Shown here one piece after another: positions 4,565 through 40,825 of a DNA stretch of 52,757 bases. The notes beneath the pieces were generated by a model. The model saw nothing but the letters and a program-made list of their open reading frames with translations. It made no database searches and was not told the origin of the DNA. The DNA comes from Escherichia phage vB_EcoM_SD350, in sequence record OR911937.1. One strand, 5' to 3'. The position numbers and the translations under genes are program-made. Every line of letters starts with the position of its first letter. Position 1 is the stretch's first letter.

Positions 4565-5062
4565 GTGGGTAACATTATGAAAATTGTTCAATTAGAGCCA
4601 TATCCGCCTCAATTGGCTATTGTTTGTAGTGAAAAAGAGCACGAAGAGCTCCAAAAACTGATGGATTTGCCTGATTTTGGCAACTGGAATGACCGAGAAA
4701 CGCGTACTGCATCTACCTATACGTTCACTCGCGTTAACTACCCGTATCTGTTAATCGTCGTCGAGCTGTACCACCCGGACGACCTGAAGTACAACACCAT
4801 TTCCCACGAAGGCATTCACGTAATGTCAACGCTGATGAACTATGTTGGCCTTAAATACGACCCGGAAAACGATGAATGGTACGCATATCAGCATGATTTC
4901 ATCGTAAATGCCATTTGTAAGGCCCATGACGAGTACATTGAGCGCCAAAAAACGCCAAAAACTAAGCCAAAAATCGAAACAGGTAATCATCCTGCTATAC
5001 TGCCACAAGACGTAATGAACTCGCTTTTGACTGACACTACTGGGGACTTTTTAGGTGATTAA
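4565..5062 (+). CDS. hypothetical protein with HExxH motif (possible small zinc metallopeptidase-like)
   Basis: 165-aa ORF with HEGIH; start may be GTG at 4565 or ATG at 4577. Confidence 0.45.
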   Translation: MGNIMKIVQLEPYPPQLAIVCSEKEHEELQKLMDLPDFGNWNDRETRTASTYTFTRVNYPYLLIVVELYHPDDLKYNTISHEGIHVMSTLMNYVGLKYDPENDEWYAYQHDFIVNAICKAHDEYIERQKTPKTKPKIETGNHPAILPQDVMNSLLTDTTGDFLGD

Positions 5063-5729
5063 TATAATCTTTGCAATGGGCCAAAATGGGGAATTCGGGT
5101 TATCTCCGGAGTTTATGAAGCATCAGGTTGACTCGTGCAAGACCATGGAAGAGGTTCGTGCGCTTCCTAAATCGGGTCTGCCCTGGAAATGTCCGTCAGA
5201 CATGCTCTTTTTCAGGACTATGACTAATTCAATTGCGACAGAACCAGGCTATAATGCATATCAGCAGCTACGTGGACAATTCCCAAATGGCCAGTTGCGA
5301 AATATGATAGCAGATGTAACGGTAAAAATGGTCGGGCATAGTGTATTGTTAGCCGGTCGTAACACGTATATGACTATGAGTCTGCCTATGTCAGCCCACA
5401 GAATACTGCTGCCGGTATCTCGCCAGATTATGGCTTCAGAAGGCTACAATAATCTGGGTGAGATGGCCGCAGACCTTGAGTCCAGAGGTACTGACGTCTG
5501 GATTGTAGGTGGTGCCGAGTTGATACTTTCGGCCCTTGAAGAACACGCAAAAGACTTACTCCGTATCGACAACATGTTTATCAGTACAATCAAGCAATCA
5601 GGTCCAAGTGATATTTTAATGGATCGTAGCAAATTAATGATGTACATTGATAGCGACTTCACTTATAATGATGAATATGTTGATAACAAACAAGTTCTGA
5701 TACAACGGTACAGGAGTTTACACAAATGA
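5055..5729 (+). CDS. dihydrofolate reductase-like protein
   Basis: Motifs IIFAMGQNGEFG, LPW, LLAGRNTY..SLP and VWIVGGAEL in the order seen in DHFRs; GTG start overlapping the upstream stop; longer than typical DHFR (224 aa). Confidence 0.55.
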   Translation: MINIIFAMGQNGEFGLSPEFMKHQVDSCKTMEEVRALPKSGLPWKCPSDMLFFRTMTNSIATEPGYNAYQQLRGQFPNGQLRNMIADVTVKMVGHSVLLAGRNTYMTMSLPMSAHRILLPVSRQIMASEGYNNLGEMAADLESRGTDVWIVGGAELILSALEEHAKDLLRIDNMFISTIKQSGPSDILMDRSKLMMYIDSDFTYNDEYVDNKQVLIQRYRSLHK

Positions 5730-6232
5730 ACATCATAATCGAGGGGCCCGACAATGCTGGTAAATCTACACTTATTGAGTTCCTTAAATCTCGTACTGGC
5801 CGCAATGTTATTCATAATACTGTTGATAAAGACCCCGAATCGGTCATGGCTAAACAGGCCAAAGAAAACTCGTTGGAAGGCGATTGCATTTATGATCGTA
5901 GCGCTGTTATATCTGAGTATATCTATTGCCTGGTTCTTCAACGTACGCCTGTCATCAATATTAATGTATCACATGTAGCAGATATGTGTGACAACGCTAT
6001 CGTTATCTTTTGTATGCCGCCTGTTGAAAAGGTACTGGCAACTACAAAAGACGAAATGCCTGGTGTTGTGGAAAATCTTGAGGCGTTATACAATCAGTAT
6101 GACAACCTCATTGACGAGCTGGTTATGATGAGTAAGCAGTTCTTCATTTACGACTGGACTGTTGAAGAAGACGGTCCTGAAGCAGCTCTCGAATATATCA
6201 ATGAACGTATTAATAAGGAGTGGAACAAATGA
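5726..6232 (+). CDS. thymidylate-kinase-like P-loop nucleotide kinase
   Basis: IIIEGPDNAGKST P-loop and a DRS segment resembling the Tmk DR(Y/H) motif; 168 aa. Confidence 0.5.
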   Translation: MNIIIEGPDNAGKSTLIEFLKSRTGRNVIHNTVDKDPESVMAKQAKENSLEGDCIYDRSAVISEYIYCLVLQRTPVININVSHVADMCDNAIVIFCMPPVEKVLATTKDEMPGVVENLEALYNQYDNLIDELVMMSKQFFIYDWTVEEDGPEAALEYINERINKEWNK

Positions 6233-33485: not shown

Positions 33486-33687
33486 TAAGCCTGAAGTTGT
33501 TTATGTTGACAGGGTAGTCAAGGTTTATCCGCCTGGTGCATACCTGGTTAAATGCCATAAGCCTGAATTAACAGGTAACACCTGGAAGGCAATAGGTCAG
33601 TTAGCTATTGAACGTGGAACAGCTCTTGATGATTGTGCAGACAAGATGGACAGCATAATTAACTGGAGTAACAAAGGGGCCGAGTGA
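33412..33687 (+). CDS. outer-membrane lipoprotein spanin (Rz1-like)
   Basis: Starts inside the Rz-like gene in another frame; signal peptide with lipobox LLLLPFLNSC. Confidence 0.5.
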   Translation: MTKQQKMIRALIPLLLLPFLNSCADKPEVVYVDRVVKVYPPGAYLVKCHKPELTGNTWKAIGQLAIERGTALDDCADKMDSIINWSNKGAE

Positions 33688-33701
33688 TGGCCCCTTTATT
33701 T
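33676..33701. terminator. bidirectional intrinsic terminator between convergent blocks
   Basis: GGGGCC-gagtgat-GGCCCC followed by TTTATTT; separates the rightward lysis genes from the leftward replication block. Confidence 0.65.
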
Positions 33702-33703
33702 GA

Positions 33704-33982
33704 TTAAGCCTGCAGGAAGCCTGGGAACATATCAGCGCGTAAAGCAGCGCCCTTCAGTAACCAGATTTGGTCTTTAGCCTGTGCAAGCGCATTGTCCTGA
33801 GCTACTTGTTTGCCGATGTCTGCATTGAACTCTGCAGGGTCAACACAACCAGAAGTACCTACACCTAACTGGAAGCCATCCAGCGTTGCCACACATACAG
33901 TTACAGTTGTATTCGGTACCTGCCAGAAATGATACTCCAGTTTATCAACAAGAGCATTAACTTCTTTAAAATCTACTTTCAT
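33704..33982 (-). CDS. small phage protein, Gp49-like family (function unknown)
   Basis: 92 aa; TVTVCVATLDGFQLGVGTSGCVDPAEFNADIGKQVAQDNALAQAKDQIW resembles a conserved small phage protein family I recall as N4 gp49/Sf6 gp66-like. Confidence 0.45.
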   Translation of the reverse strand: MKVDFKEVNALVDKLEYHFWQVPNTTVTVCVATLDGFQLGVGTSGCVDPAEFNADIGKQVAQDNALAQAKDQIWLLKGAALRADMFPGFLQA

Positions 33983-34206
33983 TATCGCTTTCCTTTCAGC
34001 TCATTATACTGCGCACATGCAGCACACAGCACTGTACCGGGTAAAAGCTGACGTCGTTTTTCTTCAATGTCTTCCCCACACTGGTAGCACGTCAGCGGGC
34101 TTACTCCGGTGTATCTTACTCGGTTCGATAGTGCTGCGTCCCGGGCAACTTGTTCAGCTTCAGAAGCCATATCAGTAATGTCCGATGTGCGCATAGTCTC
34201 AATCAT
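33982..34206 (-). CDS. DksA/TraR-type C4 zinc-finger protein
   Basis: 74 aa with CYQCGEDI...CAAC four-Cys arrangement. Confidence 0.5.
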   Translation of the reverse strand: MIETMRTSDITDMASEAEQVARDAALSNRVRYTGVSPLTCYQCGEDIEEKRRQLLPGTVLCAACAQYNELKGKR

Positions 34207-34481
34207 TATTTTCCCTCTTCTTCACAATACAGGGTTTCTAATTCGTCGCATAGCTGTTGCGTCCAGCAATCATCCTCACCACGTATCTGGAAGCACAGCA
34301 CAGGAATATCCTGTCGTAAAATATCGCTCTTGTAAATCTTTTTGGCAACAGCTTCTGGTTCTTCCTGGAATATCTTCATAAACCAGTCCAGGCCTGACGT
34401 GCAGCCTGAGGCGTCTAGTATCTCCTTCGCCCTTAACTTAAGCGTTTCATCTGCCTCATACTCTAAACCTATCTTAGACAT
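34206..34481 (-). CDS. hypothetical protein
   Basis: 91-aa ORF with AAAGG ribosome-binding site, upstream of the Zn-finger gene. Confidence 0.45.
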   Translation of the reverse strand: MSKIGLEYEADETLKLRAKEILDASGCTSGLDWFMKIFQEEPEAVAKKIYKSDILRQDIPVLCFQIRGEDDCWTQQLCDELETLYCEEEGK

Positions 34482-34496
34482 ATTATAGACCTTTAA

Positions 34497-36464
34497 TTAG
34501 TGTGCCTCTGCCCAGTTACTTTCTATCTTAGCATCAGTAAGAACAGGCACACGAAGCGGTAGTACAGTTTCCATGACCCGTACGAAATCATAGAATCCAT
34601 CTTCTGCTTGCTTACCGGTTGGTAGAGAGAAGTTAAGCTCATCGTGTACCGTCAGGCGAGGTACGCCAATCACGTCAAAGTAACCGTCTTCATACCCTTT
34701 CAGCATTGCAGACTTCATCTGGTCTGCTGACGACCCTTGCAGCACTCGGTTGATTGCTTTGTGGGTGTCTGCCAGTTTAATGTTTGGACCATACTCCTGA
34801 CGTGCTTCTTCAAATGGCAAAGGCATCTTCCCGAATCCACCACGTTTTGGGACCCATTTGTTGAACCACGTCTTCCGGCCCATAAAGGTTTCTACATACC
34901 CCTGGCTATAGCATAAATCTTCATAATGCTTCATGGTAGCACCAATGAATGGTGCACCCTGATGGTACGCCTTCAGAACAGGTTCTGCTTCTTCAGGCGT
35001 CATTGCTAACTTACGGGCAAGAGCATTAAGCATCATGCCGTACAACAAACCAAAGTTAATGGTCTTAGCCGGTTTACGCTCTATAACGTGACCTGAGGCT
35101 TCCTTGATAATATCGACCATAACATTGTGGTAATCTGCTTCCGGGTTAGCCGCGAAAATTGCTCGTAACTCATCAGCGCCCGGGCCGACTGCAAAATGCG
35201 CCATGAATCGATATTCAATTTGGGCGTAGTCTGCTGATCCCCATCTGTGTCCGACATCCGGTACGAAACAAGCACGAAGGAGTGGTCCCAGTATTTTGTG
35301 TCGAGACGGTATATTCTGCAGATTAGGGTCAGATGAGCTAAACCGACCACTAACGGTTCCGCCGTCATCACCGCGCATTTGATGGAATTGACCGTGAAGG
35401 AAGCCATTTGTATTCATCCCCAAGATATAGCCACGAATAAACGTGGACTGTATTTTCTCATAAGACTTAATCTCAGACACCAGTTCCGCAAACGGATGGT
35501 GTAAGCCTGCTAAGAAGTCTGCCGTAAACGACGGATTGCCCGCCGCTGTTCTGAAGTACTCCAGACCTAAATGGTCAAATGCAAGAGCTAAGTCCGGACC
35601 TGAGTTAACGTTAATGTTAAAGCCAATCTGGTCTTTAATCTGCTGGTGCATTTTCCTTATTTCAGCGCTAAGCGTATCATCCGCCTCTTTGGCCTTGTCA
35701 AGGTCAACACGCACACCTGCAAAACGCATCTTAAGCATTAATGGAATGAGCTTGCACTCCATATAGAATACGTCTGTTAAACACCAGCGACTTAACAATG
35801 GCCACTGGGCTTTGATAATGTGTATTGGTAAGTCGGCATCAGATTCAGCATAGTAACCCACAAGACGAGGAGGCGTTTTGTAGATGTACTTTCTGGCTTC
35901 ACCTGTTGGCTTACAGCCATAAGCATCTGAAATCCATTGGTACATCTCGGCTGAGTCTTTACCTTCGCCTACATATTTTCGTCCAAGTCCTTCAAGTGCA
36001 ACACGCGCGCCTGGGTCAAGTAATGCTTCCGCGAATTGTACATCCATGCACAATCCTTTAACTTCCACGCCTTCTGCTGCAAGCCAGCCCAAGTCATATG
36101 TGATGTTAGCACCGACTTTAACTTGGTTAGGTCGCGAGAGTTCGAGCCGAAGCCAACCAAGTACTTCCTCAGCTGGAAGGTTATCCTCTTCGCCGAGCTC
36201 GTGTCTGATTGGGTAGTAAGCTTTGAAGCCGTTGTCCGTAGCGATACTAACTCCAACGATATGACCCTCCCTCCTGGCCCAACCACTACCATTTGTATCC
36301 ATCCCTGGGTCGTATGTTTCACAGTCAAGACCGATAATCTTTGCAGAAGACAGGTCTGGGTAATGCGCGCGCGGCCGCCATCCAGTATCCCTGACGTATG
36401 GGATAGGACGGTTGATAGGTTTAACATTCTTTGCACCTTCGAAGCTATCGAATAAAAAGCTCAT
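34497..36464 (-). CDS. DNA polymerase, family A, with 3'-5' exonuclease domain
   Basis: 655 aa; exo motif LDCETY; polymerase motifs DYAQIEYR (A), KPAKTINFGLLYGM (B), VHDEL (C); no 5'-3' exonuclease domain. Confidence 0.8.
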   Translation of the reverse strand: MSFLFDSFEGAKNVKPINRPIPYVRDTGWRPRAHYPDLSSAKIIGLDCETYDPGMDTNGSGWARREGHIVGVSIATDNGFKAYYPIRHELGEEDNLPAEEVLGWLRLELSRPNQVKVGANITYDLGWLAAEGVEVKGLCMDVQFAEALLDPGARVALEGLGRKYVGEGKDSAEMYQWISDAYGCKPTGEARKYIYKTPPRLVGYYAESDADLPIHIIKAQWPLLSRWCLTDVFYMECKLIPLMLKMRFAGVRVDLDKAKEADDTLSAEIRKMHQQIKDQIGFNINVNSGPDLALAFDHLGLEYFRTAAGNPSFTADFLAGLHHPFAELVSEIKSYEKIQSTFIRGYILGMNTNGFLHGQFHQMRGDDGGTVSGRFSSSDPNLQNIPSRHKILGPLLRACFVPDVGHRWGSADYAQIEYRFMAHFAVGPGADELRAIFAANPEADYHNVMVDIIKEASGHVIERKPAKTINFGLLYGMMLNALARKLAMTPEEAEPVLKAYHQGAPFIGATMKHYEDLCYSQGYVETFMGRKTWFNKWVPKRGGFGKMPLPFEEARQEYGPNIKLADTHKAINRVLQGSSADQMKSAMLKGYEDGYFDVIGVPRLTVHDELNFSLPTGKQAEDGFYDFVRVMETVLPLRVPVLTDAKIESNWAEAH

Positions 36465-37459
36465 CAGTCCCCTCTCACATACGCAATTACAACTGTACGA
36501 GTTGAGTTTTCCATTTTGAGCGCCTGACTACCAAGTCCTATTCTTTCCATGCCTTTAGCCAGTTTACTCATCTGACTAATAACACAGTTGAACGGTTTAC
36601 TAAACTTAGTCGACTGGAACTTAATGTCGACGGACATCTTTGGAATAATCTTATCTGGTAAGTCTGCCTTTGCAGTTGACTCGCCTGTTATCTCCAGAAT
36701 AGCCTGACCTTCGTCGTACCCAGTAAGCTGGTCCATGACTTCCAGGAACTCAGGAGTGATGGCCTGCATATCCATTTCCATATTGAAGAACTTAGATACG
36801 TCTGGCCATTTGGCCGCAAGTACCGGAGCATCCATCTGTACACCATCCGCAAAGCCGAAGAACATCTGGCCGCGGGCGTATCCTACACTTGTGGGTTCCA
36901 TCTTCAGCTTAACCAGAGCCTCAAGCATTGGTTTGGCTATGGCACATTCAAATTCAAAATCTACGTTCAACTTCTCACGTATCATATACTTACCGTTAGT
37001 TGCGTAAGCATAACCATCGCGCAGAAGTAAAGATGTCGCCCATACCTGCGGTGCTTCGTTAGGTACCCACTTGGCTAAGGCAGTTAATACCGGGAGTAAT
37101 TCGCCATGCGCTGAATACCAGTTGTTAACTGTAGCAAGTGGCGGTATTGGTTCATTAAGCGCTTGCATTCTTGTTTTAAGTACACCTGCTGTGACTGTGA
37201 GGTTTCCAGCGGCTGTAATGTTAAAAGTAATCTGTTCAGTTCTTGCCGCATTAACGGCCTTACGAAATGATTCAGCATCCACTTGCAGGTCTGGAAATCC
37301 TTTACATGGCGCTCGTAGTAATACGTTCTTGTAGTATGAATGGATTGTTCCGTCTGCAATCCATATTTTGCCCATAAGACCACTATCAGTATACTTGATG
37401 GGACGAGCTTGTTGAACGGCAGTCTGTATTTGTTTGGTGTCATAGTTAAACTTGCTCAT
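36464..37459 (-). CDS. hypothetical protein between the TS-family gene and polymerase
   Basis: 331 aa, no motif assigned; stop overlaps the polymerase start (ATGA). Confidence 0.5.
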   Translation of the reverse strand: MSKFNYDTKQIQTAVQQARPIKYTDSGLMGKIWIADGTIHSYYKNVLLRAPCKGFPDLQVDAESFRKAVNAARTEQITFNITAAGNLTVTAGVLKTRMQALNEPIPPLATVNNWYSAHGELLPVLTALAKWVPNEAPQVWATSLLLRDGYAYATNGKYMIREKLNVDFEFECAIAKPMLEALVKLKMEPTSVGYARGQMFFGFADGVQMDAPVLAAKWPDVSKFFNMEMDMQAITPEFLEVMDQLTGYDEGQAILEITGESTAKADLPDKIIPKMSVDIKFQSTKFSKPFNCVISQMSKLAKGMERIGLGSQALKMENSTRTVVIAYVRGD

Positions 37460-37489: not shown

Positions 37490-38374
37490 TTATACGGCCA
37501 TTTGGAGTTTGATGTTTGGCATTGGTTTGTACTTCTCAACCATTGGCGTAACATCGGCAGGAGTGAAGTCAAACACTGACACGTCATAAATTGCATTAAT
37601 GTCAGGACGACCTTCAAAGTTAGTGTCCAGTGTAGTATCAGAATTGCTTACGATACGTTGCAGGAAAATCTTTGCCGCATCGATATGATTCTGATAGATG
37701 TGATAATCACCCAGCGTAACAGTCATATCACCTACCCCAGTACCCAGCTCAGCAGCAATGGTAATCTGCAACATCTGATGCAGCAGAATATCGTGAGGCA
37801 GGCCAAGAATAACATCCGCGCTACGCATGTGGAACATCAGCTCTAACTCATTACGGTTATTAATGAACAGCTGAAAGCCATGGTAACAAGGCGGAAGGGC
37901 CATGGCGTCCATCTCTTGTGGGTTCCATGCCGTAATGTATGCCCGGCGGTCAGTAGGCTTAACCTTCAGCGTTTCAATAACATCTTTAAGCTGGTTAGTA
38001 AGAACACCATTCTTATAGAATGGCTTAATCCATTGCACGCCGTACACAGGACCTAAGTCACGGTTGTCTGGCGTACCCCAACGTTTGTTTGCGTCCTGCA
38101 GGTTACCTTCCCACCAGTTGCAGCCAAAGCCTTTTAGCGTGTCGACGTTTGAAATACCGTTGATAAAGCAGTAAAGCTCAGCAGCAACAGCTTTGATGTT
38201 AACAGGCTTAAACACCGGCACCATCAGTTTGTTGTCGTTGAAAGCCAGCTTAAATGCTGTACCAAAACAACGGCGGGTACCAACACCTGTACGGTCTACA
38301 ACATCCTCACCTTTACGCAGGATAAAAGAAATGATGTCGCTGTAAAGAGAATCGACAGTGCTGTATGTTTTCAT
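37490..38374 (-). CDS. thymidylate-synthase-family pyrimidine C5-modifying enzyme, predicted dCMP-specific
   Basis: DRTGVGT, LGPVYGVQW, DRRAYITAWN, ALPPC (catalytic Cys), GDYHIY align to ThyA motifs; LGLPHD has Asp where ThyA has Asn177 (LGLPFN); Tyr follows the catalytic Cys instead of His. Confidence 0.75.
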   Translation of the reverse strand: MKTYSTVDSLYSDIISFILRKGEDVVDRTGVGTRRCFGTAFKLAFNDNKLMVPVFKPVNIKAVAAELYCFINGISNVDTLKGFGCNWWEGNLQDANKRWGTPDNRDLGPVYGVQWIKPFYKNGVLTNQLKDVIETLKVKPTDRRAYITAWNPQEMDAMALPPCYHGFQLFINNRNELELMFHMRSADVILGLPHDILLHQMLQITIAAELGTGVGDMTVTLGDYHIYQNHIDAAKIFLQRIVSNSDTTLDTNFEGRPDINAIYDVSVFDFTPADVTPMVEKYKPMPNIKLQMAV

Positions 38375-38967
38375 TAAAACAGTTCCTTTTGAGCCGGGTT
38401 AACGTGTGCGTCGATGATGGACTGGATGTCAGGTGCTTTCCACCCTTCAGGCTTAACAATATCCTGACCAGACTTATGCTTGCTGTTGCTTGCATCAGGC
38501 TTAGCGCGTTCTTTCGCCATGTTAGCAGCCTGTACCGCATCCCATGCTGCGTCAAGTGGCCAGTTATTGTTTGCACACCAGGTAATCAGGTGGATAATTA
38601 ACTGGGCCAGACGGTCGCAATGAGTGTCTTCAGTATCCTTAACATATACAATAAGGCCATCAGCATCGAAACGGTCCATAAATCCGCATGGCGTAGTTAA
38701 CAGAATCGGATACTCAAATTCGTTGGTGAACCATGCAGTCTGGTCATACAAGTATAACGTACCTGCGGCAATGTAAATTAAATCTACAATACCATCTAAG
38801 AAGCCAGCTTTGTCGCCGTCCTTCTTAGCTTGTTTAATTTCTTCCATCTCCTCAATAAGACGGTCGTAACGAAGCTTGAACTCAGGTTTACCGCCTTGAC
38901 TAACAGGCTTGAGGTCAAACTTCTCATGAAAAGCGGTAACGCCTGCAGCAATTTTACTGAATCGCAT
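38374..38967 (-). CDS. MazG-like all-alpha NTP pyrophosphohydrolase
   Basis: 197 aa; acidic helix RLIEEMEEIKQA...DGIVDLIYIA typical of MazG-like pyrophosphatases; adjoins the TS-family gene. Confidence 0.5.
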   Translation of the reverse strand: MRFSKIAAGVTAFHEKFDLKPVSQGGKPEFKLRYDRLIEEMEEIKQAKKDGDKAGFLDGIVDLIYIAAGTLYLYDQTAWFTNEFEYPILLTTPCGFMDRFDADGLIVYVKDTEDTHCDRLAQLIIHLITWCANNNWPLDAAWDAVQAANMAKERAKPDASNSKHKSGQDIVKPEGWKAPDIQSIIDAHVNPAQKELF

Positions 38968-39352
38968 TTCGTAACTCCTTACAAACAGTTTCGATAAACT
39001 TACGCTTAATTTCTGTAGACCAGATAATATGACGAGCCTGTTCTAAAGTGTCCCAACGTTCTTTACCCACAGGAAAGGGAACAATGAAAAGGCCGGTACG
39101 GGATATGCGCTTGATAAACGGGAATTTACAGCGCATGGTTGTTTCAAACTTGATAAAGTTTGTTTGCACATCGCGTGTAAACTTGACCTTATCAAATTCA
39201 TGTTCAAGAGTTTGAGCAATGTTGCATACTTCCTGGAAAGAAGATGCAGGCAAGTAATCTTCGCGGCCGACGGTGTTCACGTAGTCGATTTGGCCTTCTA
39301 GTCGAAGTATCCAAATCCTGTAATAAGCTTCAGCAACACGTTGTAGATTCAT
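38954..39352 (-). CDS. hypothetical protein, coupled to the MazG-like gene
   Basis: 132-aa ORF whose stop overlaps the MazG-like start by 14 nt; first gene after the 39377-39407 promoter. Confidence 0.5.
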   Translation of the reverse strand: MNLQRVAEAYYRIWILRLEGQIDYVNTVGREDYLPASSFQEVCNIAQTLEHEFDKVKFTRDVQTNFIKFETTMRCKFPFIKRISRTGLFIVPFPVGKERWDTLEQARHIIWSTEIKRKFIETVCKELRNAIQ

Positions 39353-39376
39353 TGTATCTCTCCTCTAAAAGATAAC

Positions 39377-39407
39377 TTATTATACCACATCACTCTCTAG
39401 TGGTAAA
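39377..39407 (-). promoter_or_regulatory. leftward promoter with CCAC/GTGG inverted repeat and extended -10
   Basis: Minus strand reads TTTACCAC-N-GTGGTATAAT (TTTACC-N17-TATAAT); related copies at 42505-42533, 45745-45770, 48865-48897. Confidence 0.45.
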
Positions 39408-39432
39408 GCACTTTTTACGCTTCTGGTAAAAA

Positions 39433-39462
39433 TAAAAAGGACCAGCGTTAACTGGTCCTTTT
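39433..39462. terminator. bidirectional intrinsic terminator
   Basis: AAAAGGACCAG-cgttaa-CTGGTCCTTTT: perfect 7-bp GC-rich stem flanked by A and T runs. Confidence 0.65.
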
Positions 39463-40029
39463 GGCAGGGTGGCGTAAGGAGATACAAGGCATCGTAACTA
39501 TGCAACCAGGCAGCGCATATGAGATTGGCCAAAAGACTTACCATTTTAATCCCCGCGACGAGACGAAAGGAGGTGTTATCGAGTAGCCAATCACATATGC
39601 GTTACTTGCTGTGTGCTCTCACCGCGGAAAGTATAGAGCGTTGCACTTATCACACCGATGGAGTGGCAAAAGCACACAGCAAGTACAACCTTAGTTGTGG
39701 TGTCTTAGCACCTGAGTTATTGTGGATAACCTGCACCCGACGGGTGTCAAAAAAGATACGCCAAAACACCACAACTAAAATTGTGACCGCCGTCTACACC
39801 AGGCGCCTGGGGTCAAGGTAGCGAGCCAATACCCTTTTCAGCGTCGGAGGAATCGAACCTCACACATCACGGCTTTTACCAAATCTCGGTCAGCGAGCAG
39901 AATTGAACTGCATTCACTGGACACCCTCACTGTTTCAACACACCAGGCTTAATTGATTGTTGATAAGAAGAGAGATGTAAGGATGTCCATTGAATGCACC
40001 TCCGTAGAGGTGCGTTCAGATCAGCGCTA
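39463..40029. other. noncoding island inside the replication operon; candidate structured RNA or origin
   Basis: ~570 bp without a credible ORF; perfect 15-bp inverted repeat (39602-39616 / 39670-39684, 53-nt spacer); 12-bp palindrome CCAGGCGCCTGG (39800-39811); two T-arm-like stem-loops (~39846-39862, ~39896-39912). Confidence 0.4.
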
Positions 40030-40497
40030 TTATTCAGCAACTTCTTCGTTGTCGCCTTCGATCGCGCCAGCCAGTTTAGCAGCTTCAGCTTTAGCAGCTT
40101 CTGCTTTCTGGCGAGCTTTTTCAGCTTTCTCTTCAGCTTTGCGAATCTGCTCAGCAGCTTTCGCTTCGGCTTTTTCAGCTTTGATGCGAGCACGCTCTTC
40201 AGCTTTACGCTGTTTTTCAGCGGCTTTAGCAGCATCGCGTTCTGCTTTAGCGGTATCAACACGCTTAGCCAGAACTTTACCAGTGGCTTTACGCCAGTAG
40301 GTCAGCTGGGAAGAAACAGTACCACGGGACATTTCGGTAGTGGCAACAACTTCGTCCATAACGTCAGAGCTGGACTTGCCTTCTTCATGGGCTTTATCAG
40401 CCAGGTCCCATACATAACGTGCACCAGTACCAGCTGCCGGATACAGTACGCCGTTAACTTCTTCTTTACCAGTTACAAAAGTCAGTTTCTCGCTCAT
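40030..40497 (-). CDS. protein with Lys/Ala/Glu-rich low-complexity C-terminal tail
   Basis: Start set at MSEKL (GAGGA upstream); C-terminal ~70 aa is AKAERDAAKAAEKQRKAEERARIKAEKAEAKAAEQIRKAEEKAEKARQKAEAAKAEAAK. Confidence 0.5.
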   Translation of the reverse strand: MSEKLTFVTGKEEVNGVLYPAAGTGARYVWDLADKAHEEGKSSSDVMDEVVATTEMSRGTVSSQLTYWRKATGKVLAKRVDTAKAERDAAKAAEKQRKAEERARIKAEKAEAKAAEQIRKAEEKAEKARQKAEAAKAEAAKLAGAIEGDNEEVAE

Positions 40498-40603
40498 AAT
40501 TTTTTCCTCGTCTACAGGGCTTAATGTTTGTTCGTTACGTGAGTTAATATACGTCATTTAAAAGAGTGTGTAAACACCTTTTTTAAACTTTTTTCATTAG
40601 TGT

Positions 40604-40825
40604 CTAGAAAGGCACATCATAGTCAAAAAGTTTACATCCGGAAGACAGGACTGCCGGCGGTGGTGTTTTGCCTCCGGATAACAGGCAACCTCCTGCCTGA
40701 AAACTACGGCAGTTCGCACAGCTCATATCCTGCAAGTATATAATAAGCTGTCGGCGAACATGCCGGGGTAAAGCTTTAGCCTGGGTTGCTACCCGTTCAA
40801 ATAGTTCTCTGTCATCGAGCGCCAT
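40604..40825 (-). CDS. small Cys-containing hypothetical protein
   Basis: 73-aa ORF with CANC...C...C; overlaps the helicase 3' end by 14 nt. Confidence 0.4.
   Translation of the reverse strand: MALDDRELFERVATQAKALPRHVRRQLIIYLQDMSCANCRSFQAGGCLLSGGKTPPPAVLSSGCKLFDYDVPF

Follow-up and report, generated by a model that had tools for sequence, protein, structure and literature searches.

The stretch of DNA analysed here (the window, 52,757 nt of Escherichia phage vB_EcoM_SD350, OR911937.1) is a Rosemountvirus. Its minus strand carries ORF132, a small gene preceded by a Shine-Dalgarno sequence, a sigma-70-type promoter and a rho-independent terminator (Table 1). The promoter has 10 of 12 hexamer matches plus the TG of an extended -10; alignment found GCTTTAC...TATAAT to be common to the clades and GAGGAG or GGAG ahead of ORF132 to be kept in all lineages, and in the record of Salmonella phage BP63 a promoter is annotated at the equivalent site. 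The terminator closes the upstream non-coding/tRNA-island region, and the order of terminator, promoter, ribosome-binding site and start is kept in eight lineages, with compensatory changes in the stem. The leftward promoter directly before ORF132 that was proposed in the first-pass annotation is therefore confirmed. ORF132 also adjoins a gene-free region of about 570 nt, which is highly structured; the structured RNA upstream lies at 39430–40030.

An eight-gene unit is read from this promoter, consisting of ORF132, a MazG-like gene, a thymidylate synthase (TS)-like gene, a clamp-like factor, a DNA polymerase and three small ORFs, and no internal promoter or terminator above shuffle background was found in it. 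In four of four lineages, down to 30% identity, ORF132 lies directly upstream of the MazG-like gene with an overlap of 14 nt, as had been claimed and as direct reading verified; the same overlap recurs in the relatives L002, L003, L004, L007 and L022. The Shine-Dalgarno sequence of the MazG-like gene is located inside ORF132 codons 125–126. Since the MazG-like gene has this good Shine-Dalgarno sequence of its own, strict translational coupling to ORF132 is unnecessary. The view that ORF132 is co-expressed with the predicted modification enzymes holds as far as they share a promoter; that promoter, however, drives eight genes and not the MazG/TS pair alone.

Table 1 Features of the ORF132 locus and of functionally related genes in the window
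Feature	Position	Strand	Details
ORF132 CDS	38954–39352	-	ATG start; 132 aa, 15.8 kDa, pI 9.1
Shine-Dalgarno sequence of ORF132	39360–39365	-	GAGGAG, 7 nt before the ATG at 39352–39350; direct sequence reading
Sigma-70-type promoter of ORF132	39379–39407	-	-35 TTTACC (39407–39402), 17-nt spacer, extended -10 TGgTATAAT (39387–39379)
Rho-independent terminator	39435–39462	-	12-bp stem, 4-nt loop, T-run; directly upstream of the ORF132 promoter
Dual-use junction	38954–38980	-	MazG-like Shine-Dalgarno AAGGAG 38980–38975, MazG-like ATG 38967–38965, ORF132 stop TAA 38956–38954
MazG-like (DR2231-type, all-alpha) NTP pyrophosphohydrolase	38374–38967	-	197 aa, pI 5.1; Pfam PRA-PH
Thymidylate-synthase-family enzyme	37490–38374	-	294 aa; Pfam Thymidylat_synt at 2e-62
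Rest of leftward unit	33704–37459	-	clamp-like processivity factor, DNA polymerase A, three small ORFs (one DksA-like)
Clamp-like processivity factor	36464–37459	-	
DNA polymerase A	34497–36464	-	
Hairpin ending the eight-gene unit	33673–33697		
DHFR-like gene	5055–5729		
dNMP-kinase-like gene	5726–6232		

At the sequence level ORF132 is under purifying selection, dN/dS being 0.061 in the comparison with a homologue of 93% identity and 0.103 with one of 77% identity. LC-MS/MS of purified particles of phage fHy-Eco03 detected its homologue gp57, which is 42% identical to ORF132, with three peptides, 4 PSMs and 23.6% coverage (PMC8145870 Table S6). The dN/dS values, the conserved layout, the presence in about 60 records and the peptides of the homologue make ORF132 more than a chance open reading frame. 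We conclude that it is a real, expressed gene, with the position, strand and length first assigned to it.

ORF132 is specific to the Rosemountvirus/Loughboroughvirus/fHy-Eco03-like phage group. It is 100% identical to BP63 gp57 (YP_009302976), and both this protein and fHy-Eco03 gp57 have its length and position and overlap the following gene in the same way. The PHROG 36727 profile is matched over residues 1–132 of 132 (E = 3e-93), and also by all 30 homologues. A homologue was found in all of the approximately 60 related phage records, and the roughly 30 sequence clusters come entirely from 52–57 kb phages of Salmonella and E. coli; six loci from IMG/VR and JGI metagenomes are likewise all in 52–54 kb relatives. 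When 1.84 billion representatives were searched by profile, three distant clade members and two spurious repeat proteins came up, with no true outsiders, and tblastn of 50,697 phage records with ORF132 and its most divergent homologue gave no match outside the clade. Between clades, identity is 37–42% and ORF132 diverges at roughly double the rate of its neighbours (dN 0.59–0.65 versus 0.25–0.33).

Searches of Pfam, NCBIfam and PADLOC with all 30 members found no family match, the PADLOC defence and counter-defence models giving a best E of 0.017 across the 30, in single members only. Outside PHROG 36727, the PHROG search gave only a weak match to phrog_16941 (E = 0.0016), itself without assigned function, and PDB sequence profiles returned noise only (arabinofuranosidase, E = 2.1; MinE, E = 0.21). 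The authors of the fHy-Eco03 study obtained 'No significant hits' in their HHpred run on gp57, and the searchable literature reports no knock-out, transcriptome or biochemical test of ORF132. The predicted model (pLDDT 91.7) has five helices and a beta-hairpin at residues 80–90, and a BFVD fold search with it matched only the fHy-Eco03 homologue (TM 0.94). The first-pass annotation had recognised no motif in ORF132, which these searches bear out. It had also named remote homology search and structure prediction as the means of checking its reading, and clear homology to an unrelated function as the result that would count against it; as no such homology was found, that objection does not arise.

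All 30 family members are basic (pI 8.8–9.8), and only M1, F66, P78, V95, G96 and R128 are invariant among them, with no catalytic motif among these residues; R5, E8, R17, K81, R85 and K116 are conserved as well. The most conserved motif, P-[YF]-[IV]-K-x-I-x-R-[ST]-G-L-F..P.VG, forms the hairpin, which in the model stands immediately after a 17-residue helix. As judged from its sequence, ORF132 is non-enzymatic, and its probable role is that of a small binding protein. Several particular identities were tried and rejected. ORF132 does not show the combination of profile similarity and EExxE...DxxxD metal-binding motifs expected of a degenerate MazG paralogue; nor did it split off from longer MazG-like proteins, none of the MazG-like homologues having an ORF132-like domain fused to it; and it does not belong to the HhH-GPD base-excision family, Pfam being null and hhalign giving a probability of 0.2% with the 160-aa gene of Xanthomonas phage Xp12. 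Nor does it fit the HEPN RNases, which are marked by a helical bundle with a conserved R-x(4-6)-H catalytic motif. A dNMP/thymidylate kinase is contradicted by the lack of a P-loop (GxxxxGK[ST]) in the ORF132 sequence and by the separate kinase-like gene, and an acidic DNA mimic of the Ocr, Arn or ArdA type is excluded by the basic pI.

Among solved structures, DR2231 of Deinococcus radiodurans, a MazG-like all-alpha dUTPase (PDB 2yeu, 5hva), is nearest to the neighbouring MazG-like protein, with a match at E = 7e-16 (about 1e-15). EExxE and DxxxD are invariant in the MazG-like proteins of these phages except in the degenerate clade D lineage, where they are lost; the pI is 4.8–5.3 in the three catalytically intact clades and 6.0 in clade D. 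The MazG-like proteins of ORF132-bearing phages have an insertion of about 60 aa (residues 72–135 in the window protein), with a DxxxDxxY-to-VQxANM spacing of 79–80 residues compared to 19 in 11 of 13 outgroup homologues, and this insertion is their fastest-diverging part (about 49% identity versus 70–73% in the cores). In the active-site alignment (E. coli ThyA numbering), the TS-family enzyme has Cys146, Leu143, Asp169 and an Asp in place of Asn177. Under the published residue rules for substrate class (PMC13326640), these residues, with Asp replacing Asn177, predict that it acts on dCMP. The window also has a dCMP deaminase gene, which, like the DHFR-like and kinase-like genes, is sited apart from the MazG-like/TS pair. 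The pair looks, from these signatures, like an Xp12-type 5-methylcytosine precursor module, and the signatures, together with published digestion patterns, point to phages of this group having 5-methylcytosine in place of cytosine, as Xp12 does. In the degenerate lineage the MazG-like gene is without EExxE, DxxxD, VQAANMAKERA and VKPEGW, and the TS homologue has Asn at 177 and reads as dUMP-type; both ORF132 and the MazG-like gene are full-length there and keep their 14-nt overlap.

The Xp12 cassette consists of the 160-aa HhH-GPD-like gene, a MazG-like gene, a TS homologue, dCMP deaminase and DHFR. Its MazG-like protein is homologous to that of the window (E = 3e-6), a TS homologue with Asp at 177, dCMP deaminase and DHFR are present in both, and in both a small gene overlaps the MazG-like start. 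However, the small gene of Xp12 is of the HhH-GPD family (E = 5e-7) and unrelated to ORF132, its MazG-like protein is without the 60-aa insertion, and its nucleotide genes form one block, whereas the deaminase, DHFR and kinase genes of the window lie elsewhere. Cassettes of MazG-like, TS homologue and dCMP deaminase genes without an ORF132 homologue were found in five unrelated phage contexts, including Xp12. In phage T4, dCTPase (gp56), dCMP hydroxymethylase (gp42) and dNMP kinase (gp1) work in a dNTP-synthesising complex, and the logic is the same: removal of dCTP, modification of dCMP by a TS-family enzyme, re-phosphorylation, and supply coupled to the replisome. The window differs from T4 here: its TS enzyme retains Leu143 and occurs along with a DHFR gene, which indicates methyl rather than hydroxymethyl transfer. 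A complex of the T4 type, if these phages form one, would suit a non-catalytic adaptor; to our knowledge, T4 has no counterpart of ORF132.

We tentatively propose, with low confidence, that ORF132 is a non-catalytic, clade-specific partner of the MazG-like protein. As the first cistron of an eight-gene operon that would be transcribed by host RNA polymerase, it would be produced alongside the acidic MazG-like protein, whose cistron comes next and overlaps its own, would most likely act by protein binding, as an adaptor or regulator of the MazG-like protein, and may dock on the insertion peculiar to these proteins; it would catalyse no base-modification step itself. The invariant adjacency of the two genes across lineages, the opposite charges of the basic ORF132 and acidic MazG-like proteins, and the restriction of the insertion to MazG-like proteins of ORF132-bearing phages are all compatible with such a partnership. 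The rapid divergence of the insertion, which parallels that of ORF132, and the persistence of both genes, full-length and overlapped, where the MazG-like protein is catalytically degenerate also speak for it. In the fHy-Eco03 proteomics, Gp57 and the MazG-like Gp56 had similar low abundance (4 and 5 PSMs). Because every carrier comes from a single syntenic group of phages, the adjacency and the co-occurrence of insertion and ORF132 count as one evolutionary event and not as independent replicates. Against the partnership, short overlaps are common in this genome, with many more in the BP63 table and one, at the helicase/ORF73 junction (40812–40825), likewise of 14 nt; the absence of fusions to MazG-like homologues also argues against it, as do the MazG, TS and deaminase cassettes of Xp12 and the four other contexts, which work without ORF132. 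A more elaborate version, in which ORF132, as a regulatory or adaptor subunit with a new fold, would sit on the 60-residue insertion of a DR2231-type dCTP/dUTP pyrophosphatase and tie to the replisome the nucleotide-pool remodelling that serves a genome fully substituted with 5-methylcytosine, and the pair would have a second, non-catalytic role, is decidedly improbable. Such a second role would explain why the pair persists, overlapped, where the catalytic residues of the pyrophosphatase are lost and TS has Asn177.

Somewhat more doubtful than a MazG-like partner is a nucleic-acid-binding replication or transcription factor, whose conserved helix and basic hairpin 'wing' would contact phage DNA or RNA, for example the structured region upstream or the replisome. 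The basic pI of the family, the formation of the hairpin by its best-conserved motif right after the long helix, the place of ORF132 at the head of a polymerase/clamp operon and the adjoining structured region would all fit. However, a match to RPC62 was gone with the better model, the only Pfam helix-turn-helix or winged-helix match was SelB_WHD3 in one member (E = 0.05), the helices are longer than canonical winged-helix ones, and a search near ORF132 revealed neither iterons nor repeated binding sites. That ORF132 is an early protein which blocks or redirects a factor of the host, such as a modification-dependent (type IV) restriction enzyme like McrBC, to which fully 5-methylcytosine-substituted DNA would be open, or an enzyme of host nucleotide metabolism, appears rather unlikely. 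E. coli K-12 has McrA, McrBC and Mrr, so a 5-methylcytosine genome as predicted would need protection, and relatives were isolated on K-12 derivatives according to the host fields of their records; a host-type promoter, an orphan restricted to one lineage with a fold matched nowhere else, and the doubled between-clade dN also agree with this role. Yet ORF132 is one of the universal core genes, has a fixed place in a replication operon and is under strong purifying selection, while anti-defence genes are typically variable and accessory; it is kept where TS has Asn177, the MazG-like protein is degenerate and cytosine replacement is doubtful; and its homologue was outside the set of the fHy-Eco03 toxicity screen. 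T7 Ocr, T4 Arn and T4 IPI* are small phage-specific proteins, early or packaged, that shield unusual DNA against the nucleases of the host. ORF132 showed no similarity to them in sequence or fold; Ocr and Arn mimic DNA and are strongly acidic, a type that the basic pI of ORF132 (about 9) rules out, and IPI* is late and packaged whereas ORF132 is in the replication operon.

Co-transcription and overlap with the MazG-like/TS-like pair could also mean that making or incorporating the modified nucleotide strictly requires ORF132, as an enzyme or accessory factor of the pathway. This is very unlikely, as ORF132 has no catalytic signature, is absent from Xp12 and the four other cassettes, and persists in the lineage whose pathway genes seem to be inactive or reverted, and the known steps are covered by the pyrophosphatase, TS homologue, dCMP deaminase, DHFR-like and dNMP-kinase-like genes. 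The GenBank note on fHy-Eco03 gp57, 'putative structural protein', follows from its detection in purified particles. By that criterion 48 of 81 proteins received the label, thymidylate synthase, DNA polymerase, helicase, primase and DHFR among them; with 4 PSMs against 47–79 for true structural proteins, and with ORF132 in an early/middle replication operon on the strand opposite to the structural module, a structural or packaged virion protein is scarcely credible. The choice left by the first-pass annotation, between an accessory factor of the pathway and an unrelated early protein, is thus narrowed: a required component is disfavoured, and a clade-specific partner of the MazG-like protein is still compatible with the data.

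As things stand, ORF132 counts as an orphan of modest interest, and no evidence supports it as a required part of the adjoining DNA-modification chemistry. Rosemountvirus and Loughboroughvirus phages have repeatedly been proposed for the biocontrol of Salmonella and E. coli, and an 'unknown modification' is already known to make their DNA resistant to most restriction enzymes. Since ORF132 is a core gene of a modification-enzyme/polymerase operon, whether it belongs to the pathway is relevant to phage engineering and host-range prediction. Should it turn out to be a MazG-like partner or to inhibit modification-dependent restriction, phage nucleotide-pool or counter-defence biology would gain a new protein fold. 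More immediately useful is the result on its context, the predicted Xp12-like 5-methylcytosine replacement in this phage group.

ORF132 was confirmed at 38954-39352 (-), and both this reading frame and its 14-nt overlap with the start of the MazG-like gene, as described in the first-pass annotation, were read from the sequence. The same annotation had placed ORF132 first after a leftward promoter; this promoter was found, with a ribosome-binding site and a terminator hairpin in addition (Table). The order terminator, promoter, ribosome-binding site and start could be aligned in 8 lineages, with compensatory changes in the terminator stem (e.g. GGACCAG/CTGGTCC, GGACCTG/CAGGTCC and GGGCCTG/CGGGCCC). 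The promoter unit comprises 8 genes (ORF132, the MazG-like gene, the thymidylate synthase (TS)-like gene, a clamp-like processivity factor, DNA polymerase A and 3 small ORFs) and ends at a hairpin at 33673-33697; no internal signal within it exceeded shuffle background. Co-expression with the predicted modification enzymes is thus supported by the shared promoter unit, but the emphasis on that pair is not, since the unit has 8 genes.

Table. Coordinates of features at the ORF132 locus, of related nucleotide genes and of the divergent lineage
Feature	Position	Strand	Remarks
Terminator hairpin	39462-39435	(-)	12-bp; directly upstream of ORF132 promoter
ORF132 promoter	39407-39379	(-)	TTTACC 39407-39402, 17-nt spacer, TGgTATAAT 39387-39379; direct reading
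ORF132 RBS	39365-39360	(-)	GAGGAG; 7 nt ahead of ATG at 39352; direct sequence reading
MazG-like Shine-Dalgarno	38980-38975		AAGGAG; encoded in ORF132 codons 125-126
MazG-like ATG	38967-38965	(-)
ORF132 TAA stop	38956-38954		14 nt within MazG-like gene
dCMP deaminase			in the window; counterpart BP63 gp63
DHFR-like	5055-5729
dNMP-kinase-like	5726-6232
Divergent lineage	L004 276-821 and 818-1696; L022 954-1499; L003 1902-1961		contigs of 1.7-2.6 kb

The ORF132/MazG overlap is unremarkable for this genome, in which overlap is routine; the helicase/ORF73 junction also overlaps by 14 nt (40812-40825). Junctions in the window genome are usually short overlaps of 1, 4, 8, 14 or 17 nt, and the 73-aa ORF after the helicase belongs to PHROG 23504, to which PHROG assigns no function. 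The MazG start codon overlies ORF132 codons Asn129 and Ala130. The MazG-like gene accounts in part for how strongly the ORF132 C-terminus (KELRNA[IF]Q) is conserved, because the Shine-Dalgarno sequence and start of that gene overlie ORF132 codons.

Around ORF132, a 4.2-kb region shares 97-99% identity with ~45 genomes of Salmonella and E. coli myophages (51-57 kb), including vB_SalM_Sz, LSE7621, BP63 and swi3, and by this sequence identity the window is assigned to Rosemountvirus. The counterpart of ORF132 in BP63 is gp57, annotated as 'hypothetical protein', and a homologue was present in every record among ~60 related phage records. Word-indexed and exhaustive HMMER searches gave ~30 clusters of 131-134 aa, with a lowest identity of 30%, all confined to contigs of 52-57 kb or fragments of such; outside this phage group the searches returned only 2 spurious repeat proteins. 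Five loci came from IMG/VR and one from JGI metagenomes. The carriers separate into four lineages: Rosemountvirus, Loughboroughvirus (77% identity), the fHy-Eco03/SOI901/KE25 group (37-46%), and a divergent lineage of three loci, L003, L004 and L022 (30-33%), seen in short Logan contigs only. One matching record, PP583539.1, is titled 'Listeria phage 220426122051' with Listeria monocytogenes as its listed host; it is 98% identical to Salmonella/E. coli Rosemountviruses over the ORF132 region and its ORF132 product is identical, and its host or name assignment looks doubtful.

Compared with homologues at 93% and 77% identity, ORF132 has dN/dS values of 0.061 and 0.103, respectively, comparable to the adjoining enzymes. 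The 42%-identical homologue gp57 of fHy-Eco03 was detected by LC-MS/MS with 3 peptides, 4 spectra (PSMs) and 23.6% coverage (PMC8145870 Table S6). From the low dN/dS, the presence in ~60 related records, the gp57 peptides and the conserved order of terminator, promoter, ribosome-binding site and start, we conclude that ORF132 is a real gene. The 'virion-associated/structural' label itself is not credible: the same criterion tagged 48 of 81 fHy-Eco03 proteins, including thymidylate synthase, DNA polymerase, helicase and DHFR, and true structural proteins gave 47-79 PSMs (PMC8145870). That ORF132 is a virion protein is therefore extremely unlikely. In the GenBank record of fHy-Eco03 (MW602648.1), 'putative structural protein/virion associated' notes stand on TS, DNA polymerase, helicase, MazG-like protein and exonuclease because the LC-MS/MS criterion was permissive, and they could mislead automated annotation. 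Peptides were also reported from g53.1, an ORF nested within the polymerase gene.

The first-pass annotation recognised no motif in ORF132, and searches of Pfam, NCBIfam and PADLOC likewise gave no family match; the sole match was its own family, PHROG 36727, already catalogued as hypothetical. Structure prediction, which had been proposed as a check, was run with AlphaFold2 on a 30-sequence alignment and gave a model (pLDDT 91.7, pTM 0.87) with five helices (3-24, 36-53, 60-76, 99-111 and 113-131) and a beta-hairpin (80-90). Invariant positions are limited to M1, F66, P78, V95, G96 and R128; the near-invariant set consists of hydrophobic core positions and the charged residues R5, E8, R17, D32, E50, E52, K81, R85, K116 and E126, and the conserved positions form no nucleophile, metal-binding or P-loop pattern. 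All family members are basic (pI 8.8-9.8). Taken together, family searches, model, conservation and charge predict that ORF132 is a small, soluble, non-enzymatic binding protein with an undescribed fold. Membership tests for MazG, HhH-GPD, HEPN, kinase and DNA-mimic proteins failed. ORF132 was unrelated to the MazG family and to the gene upstream of the MazG-like gene in Xanthomonas phage Xp12, and it did not resemble a piece split off from longer MazG-like proteins, having no relationship to their N- or C-terminal extensions.

A gene-free stretch of ~570 nt at 39430-40030 (-) separates ORF175 (40030-40557) from the ORF132 promoter; it has 4 long imperfect hairpins, whose arms measure 15-25 nt, and the terminator at its end. 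Folded as RNA it reaches -237 kcal/mol (z = -9.5 versus shuffles); no Rfam family or tRNA was found in it. It contains the T-arm-like motifs GCAGTTCAATTCTGC and GAGGTTCGATTCCTC, and a block TGAATGCAGTTC..TCTGCTCGCTGACCGAGATT.GGTAAA is kept across several clades. The equivalent interval in loci L003, L018 and L022 holds genuine tRNA genes (Gln and Asn, Pro and Gln). This stretch may be a structured ncRNA or a tRNA-island remnant. RefSeq places a 54-aa CDS, BP63 gp58, at window 39380-39544 (-), across the terminator hairpin and overlapping the promoter; its sole family match, DUF5318, is non-significant (E = 0.074, 13.3 bits versus a 31-bit cutoff), and the annotated CDS, which falls within the non-coding region, is probably spurious.

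The MazG-like protein of the window is of the DR2231 type (PDB match, E ~1e-15), and its EExxE and DxxxD motifs are invariant. It is homologous to a gene of Xp12, the classical example of a phage whose cytosine is completely replaced by 5-methylcytosine; the Xp12 block reads HhH-GPD-like, MazG-like, TS homologue, dCMP deaminase and DHFR. The window TS homologue (37490-38374) keeps Cys146, Leu143 and Asp169 and has Asp in place of Asn177 (E. coli ThyA numbering). By the rules for this family, Asp177 indicates that dCMP is the substrate, Leu143 tends to accompany a methyl rather than a hydroxymethyl product, and Asp169 counts against a 5-hydroxycytosine synthase (PMC13326640). The rule for Leu143 has an exception, since Xp12 has Asn there in our alignment. 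Published digests showed that S144 DNA was cut only by SspI and PacI, two enzymes with AT-only sites (PMC7432712), and fHy-Eco03 DNA by one of ten enzymes, ScaI (PMC8145870). In the NEB survey, Xp12 (5mC) DNA was partly cut by ScaI and resisted NcoI, NotI, SphI, AflII, Sau3AI, SmaI and XhoI, T4gt (5hmC) DNA resisted ScaI, and SP8 (hmU) DNA was cut by most enzymes (PMC7653180). The S144 and fHy-Eco03 digests fit the Xp12 pattern and neither the T4gt nor the SP8 pattern. Given the TS residues, the MazG-like homology, the deaminase, DHFR and kinase genes and these digests, we infer that the phage group is best read as having an Xp12-like replacement of dC by 5-methyl-dC, with complete substitution predicted. 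No report of such replacement in these phages was found in the literature searched, where their DNA is said to carry an 'unknown modification'. In its logic the operon varies the strategy of T4 and Xp12: dCTP hydrolysis, dCMP modification by a TS-family enzyme and re-phosphorylation.

At least five phage contexts unrelated to one another (Xp12/L008, L010, L011, L019 and L020) hold cassettes of MazG-like protein, TS homologue and dCMP deaminase. The gene upstream of the MazG-like gene there is HhH-GPD-like, a C5 DNA methylase, a 182-aa ORF, or none; ORF132 is in none of the five. The ORF132 homologue of L004/L022 retains the family-conserved residues, the layout of terminator and promoter, and the overlap of 14 nt, beside a full-length, collinear 181-aa MazG-like gene in which EExxE has become NNALV and DxxxD HQMCV, and which also lacks VQAANMAKERA and VKPEGW; the TS homologue of this lineage has the canonical Asn177. 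The 20 visible N-terminal residues of the L003 MazG-like protein suggest the same degenerate state. Retention of ORF132 beside such genes indicates that its upkeep does not require an active pyrophosphatase or dCMP-type TS, with the caveat that the case is made from two overlapping contigs of related samples, which match at 100% across the 1,073 nt they share, and one further fragment. This lineage may have lost, or never acquired, cytosine replacement. The first-pass annotation had offered an accessory factor of the pathway or an unrelated early protein. The five cassettes and the degenerate enzymes speak against a required component, and an obligatory role is very unlikely; an accessory factor is compatible with a clade-specific partner of the MazG-like protein, considering the invariant adjacency of the two genes, an insertion in the MazG-like protein and the opposite charges of the two products.

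In MazG-like proteins of all ORF132-bearing clades, the spacer from DxxxDxxY to VQxANM is 79-80 residues, versus 19 in 11 of 13 outgroup homologues and 31 in the Xp12 type. The extra ~60 residues (72-135 of the product of 38374-38967) are retained even in the degenerate lineage and are the fastest-diverging part (~49% identity versus 70-73% in the cores). ORF132 diverges comparably (37-42% between lineages), and its neighbours are slower (MazG, TS and clamp 58-67%, helicase ~80%). At pH 7 the two proteins differ in the sign of their charge: ORF132 has +3.7 and the MazG-like protein -8. We tentatively propose, at low confidence, that ORF132 is a putative non-catalytic, clade-specific partner of the MazG-like protein; adjacency and the co-occurrence with the insertion count as a single event, because all carriers form one syntenic clade. 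Made from one message with the MazG-like protein, ORF132 would act as its adaptor or regulator, perhaps docking on the insertion, and would stand outside the modification chemistry rather than be one of its steps.

A putative nucleic-acid-binding replication or transcription factor would agree with the basic charge, the conserved basic hairpin following a long helix, the gene's place as the first of the polymerase operon, and the structured non-coding region beside it. The winged-helix matches all disappeared with the better model. This reading, also of low confidence, ranks just below that of a MazG-like partner. A host-directed inhibitor, e.g. of type IV restriction, is unlikely: the orphan fold and the rapid divergence between clades speak for it, but ORF132 is a basic protein and a fixed, strongly constrained core gene, kept where modification appears lost. 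ORF132 is thus a real and unexplained gene, with no surprising activity indicated so far, and we rate its operon as a known nucleotide-remodelling and replication type to which a conserved, subunit-like orphan is added.
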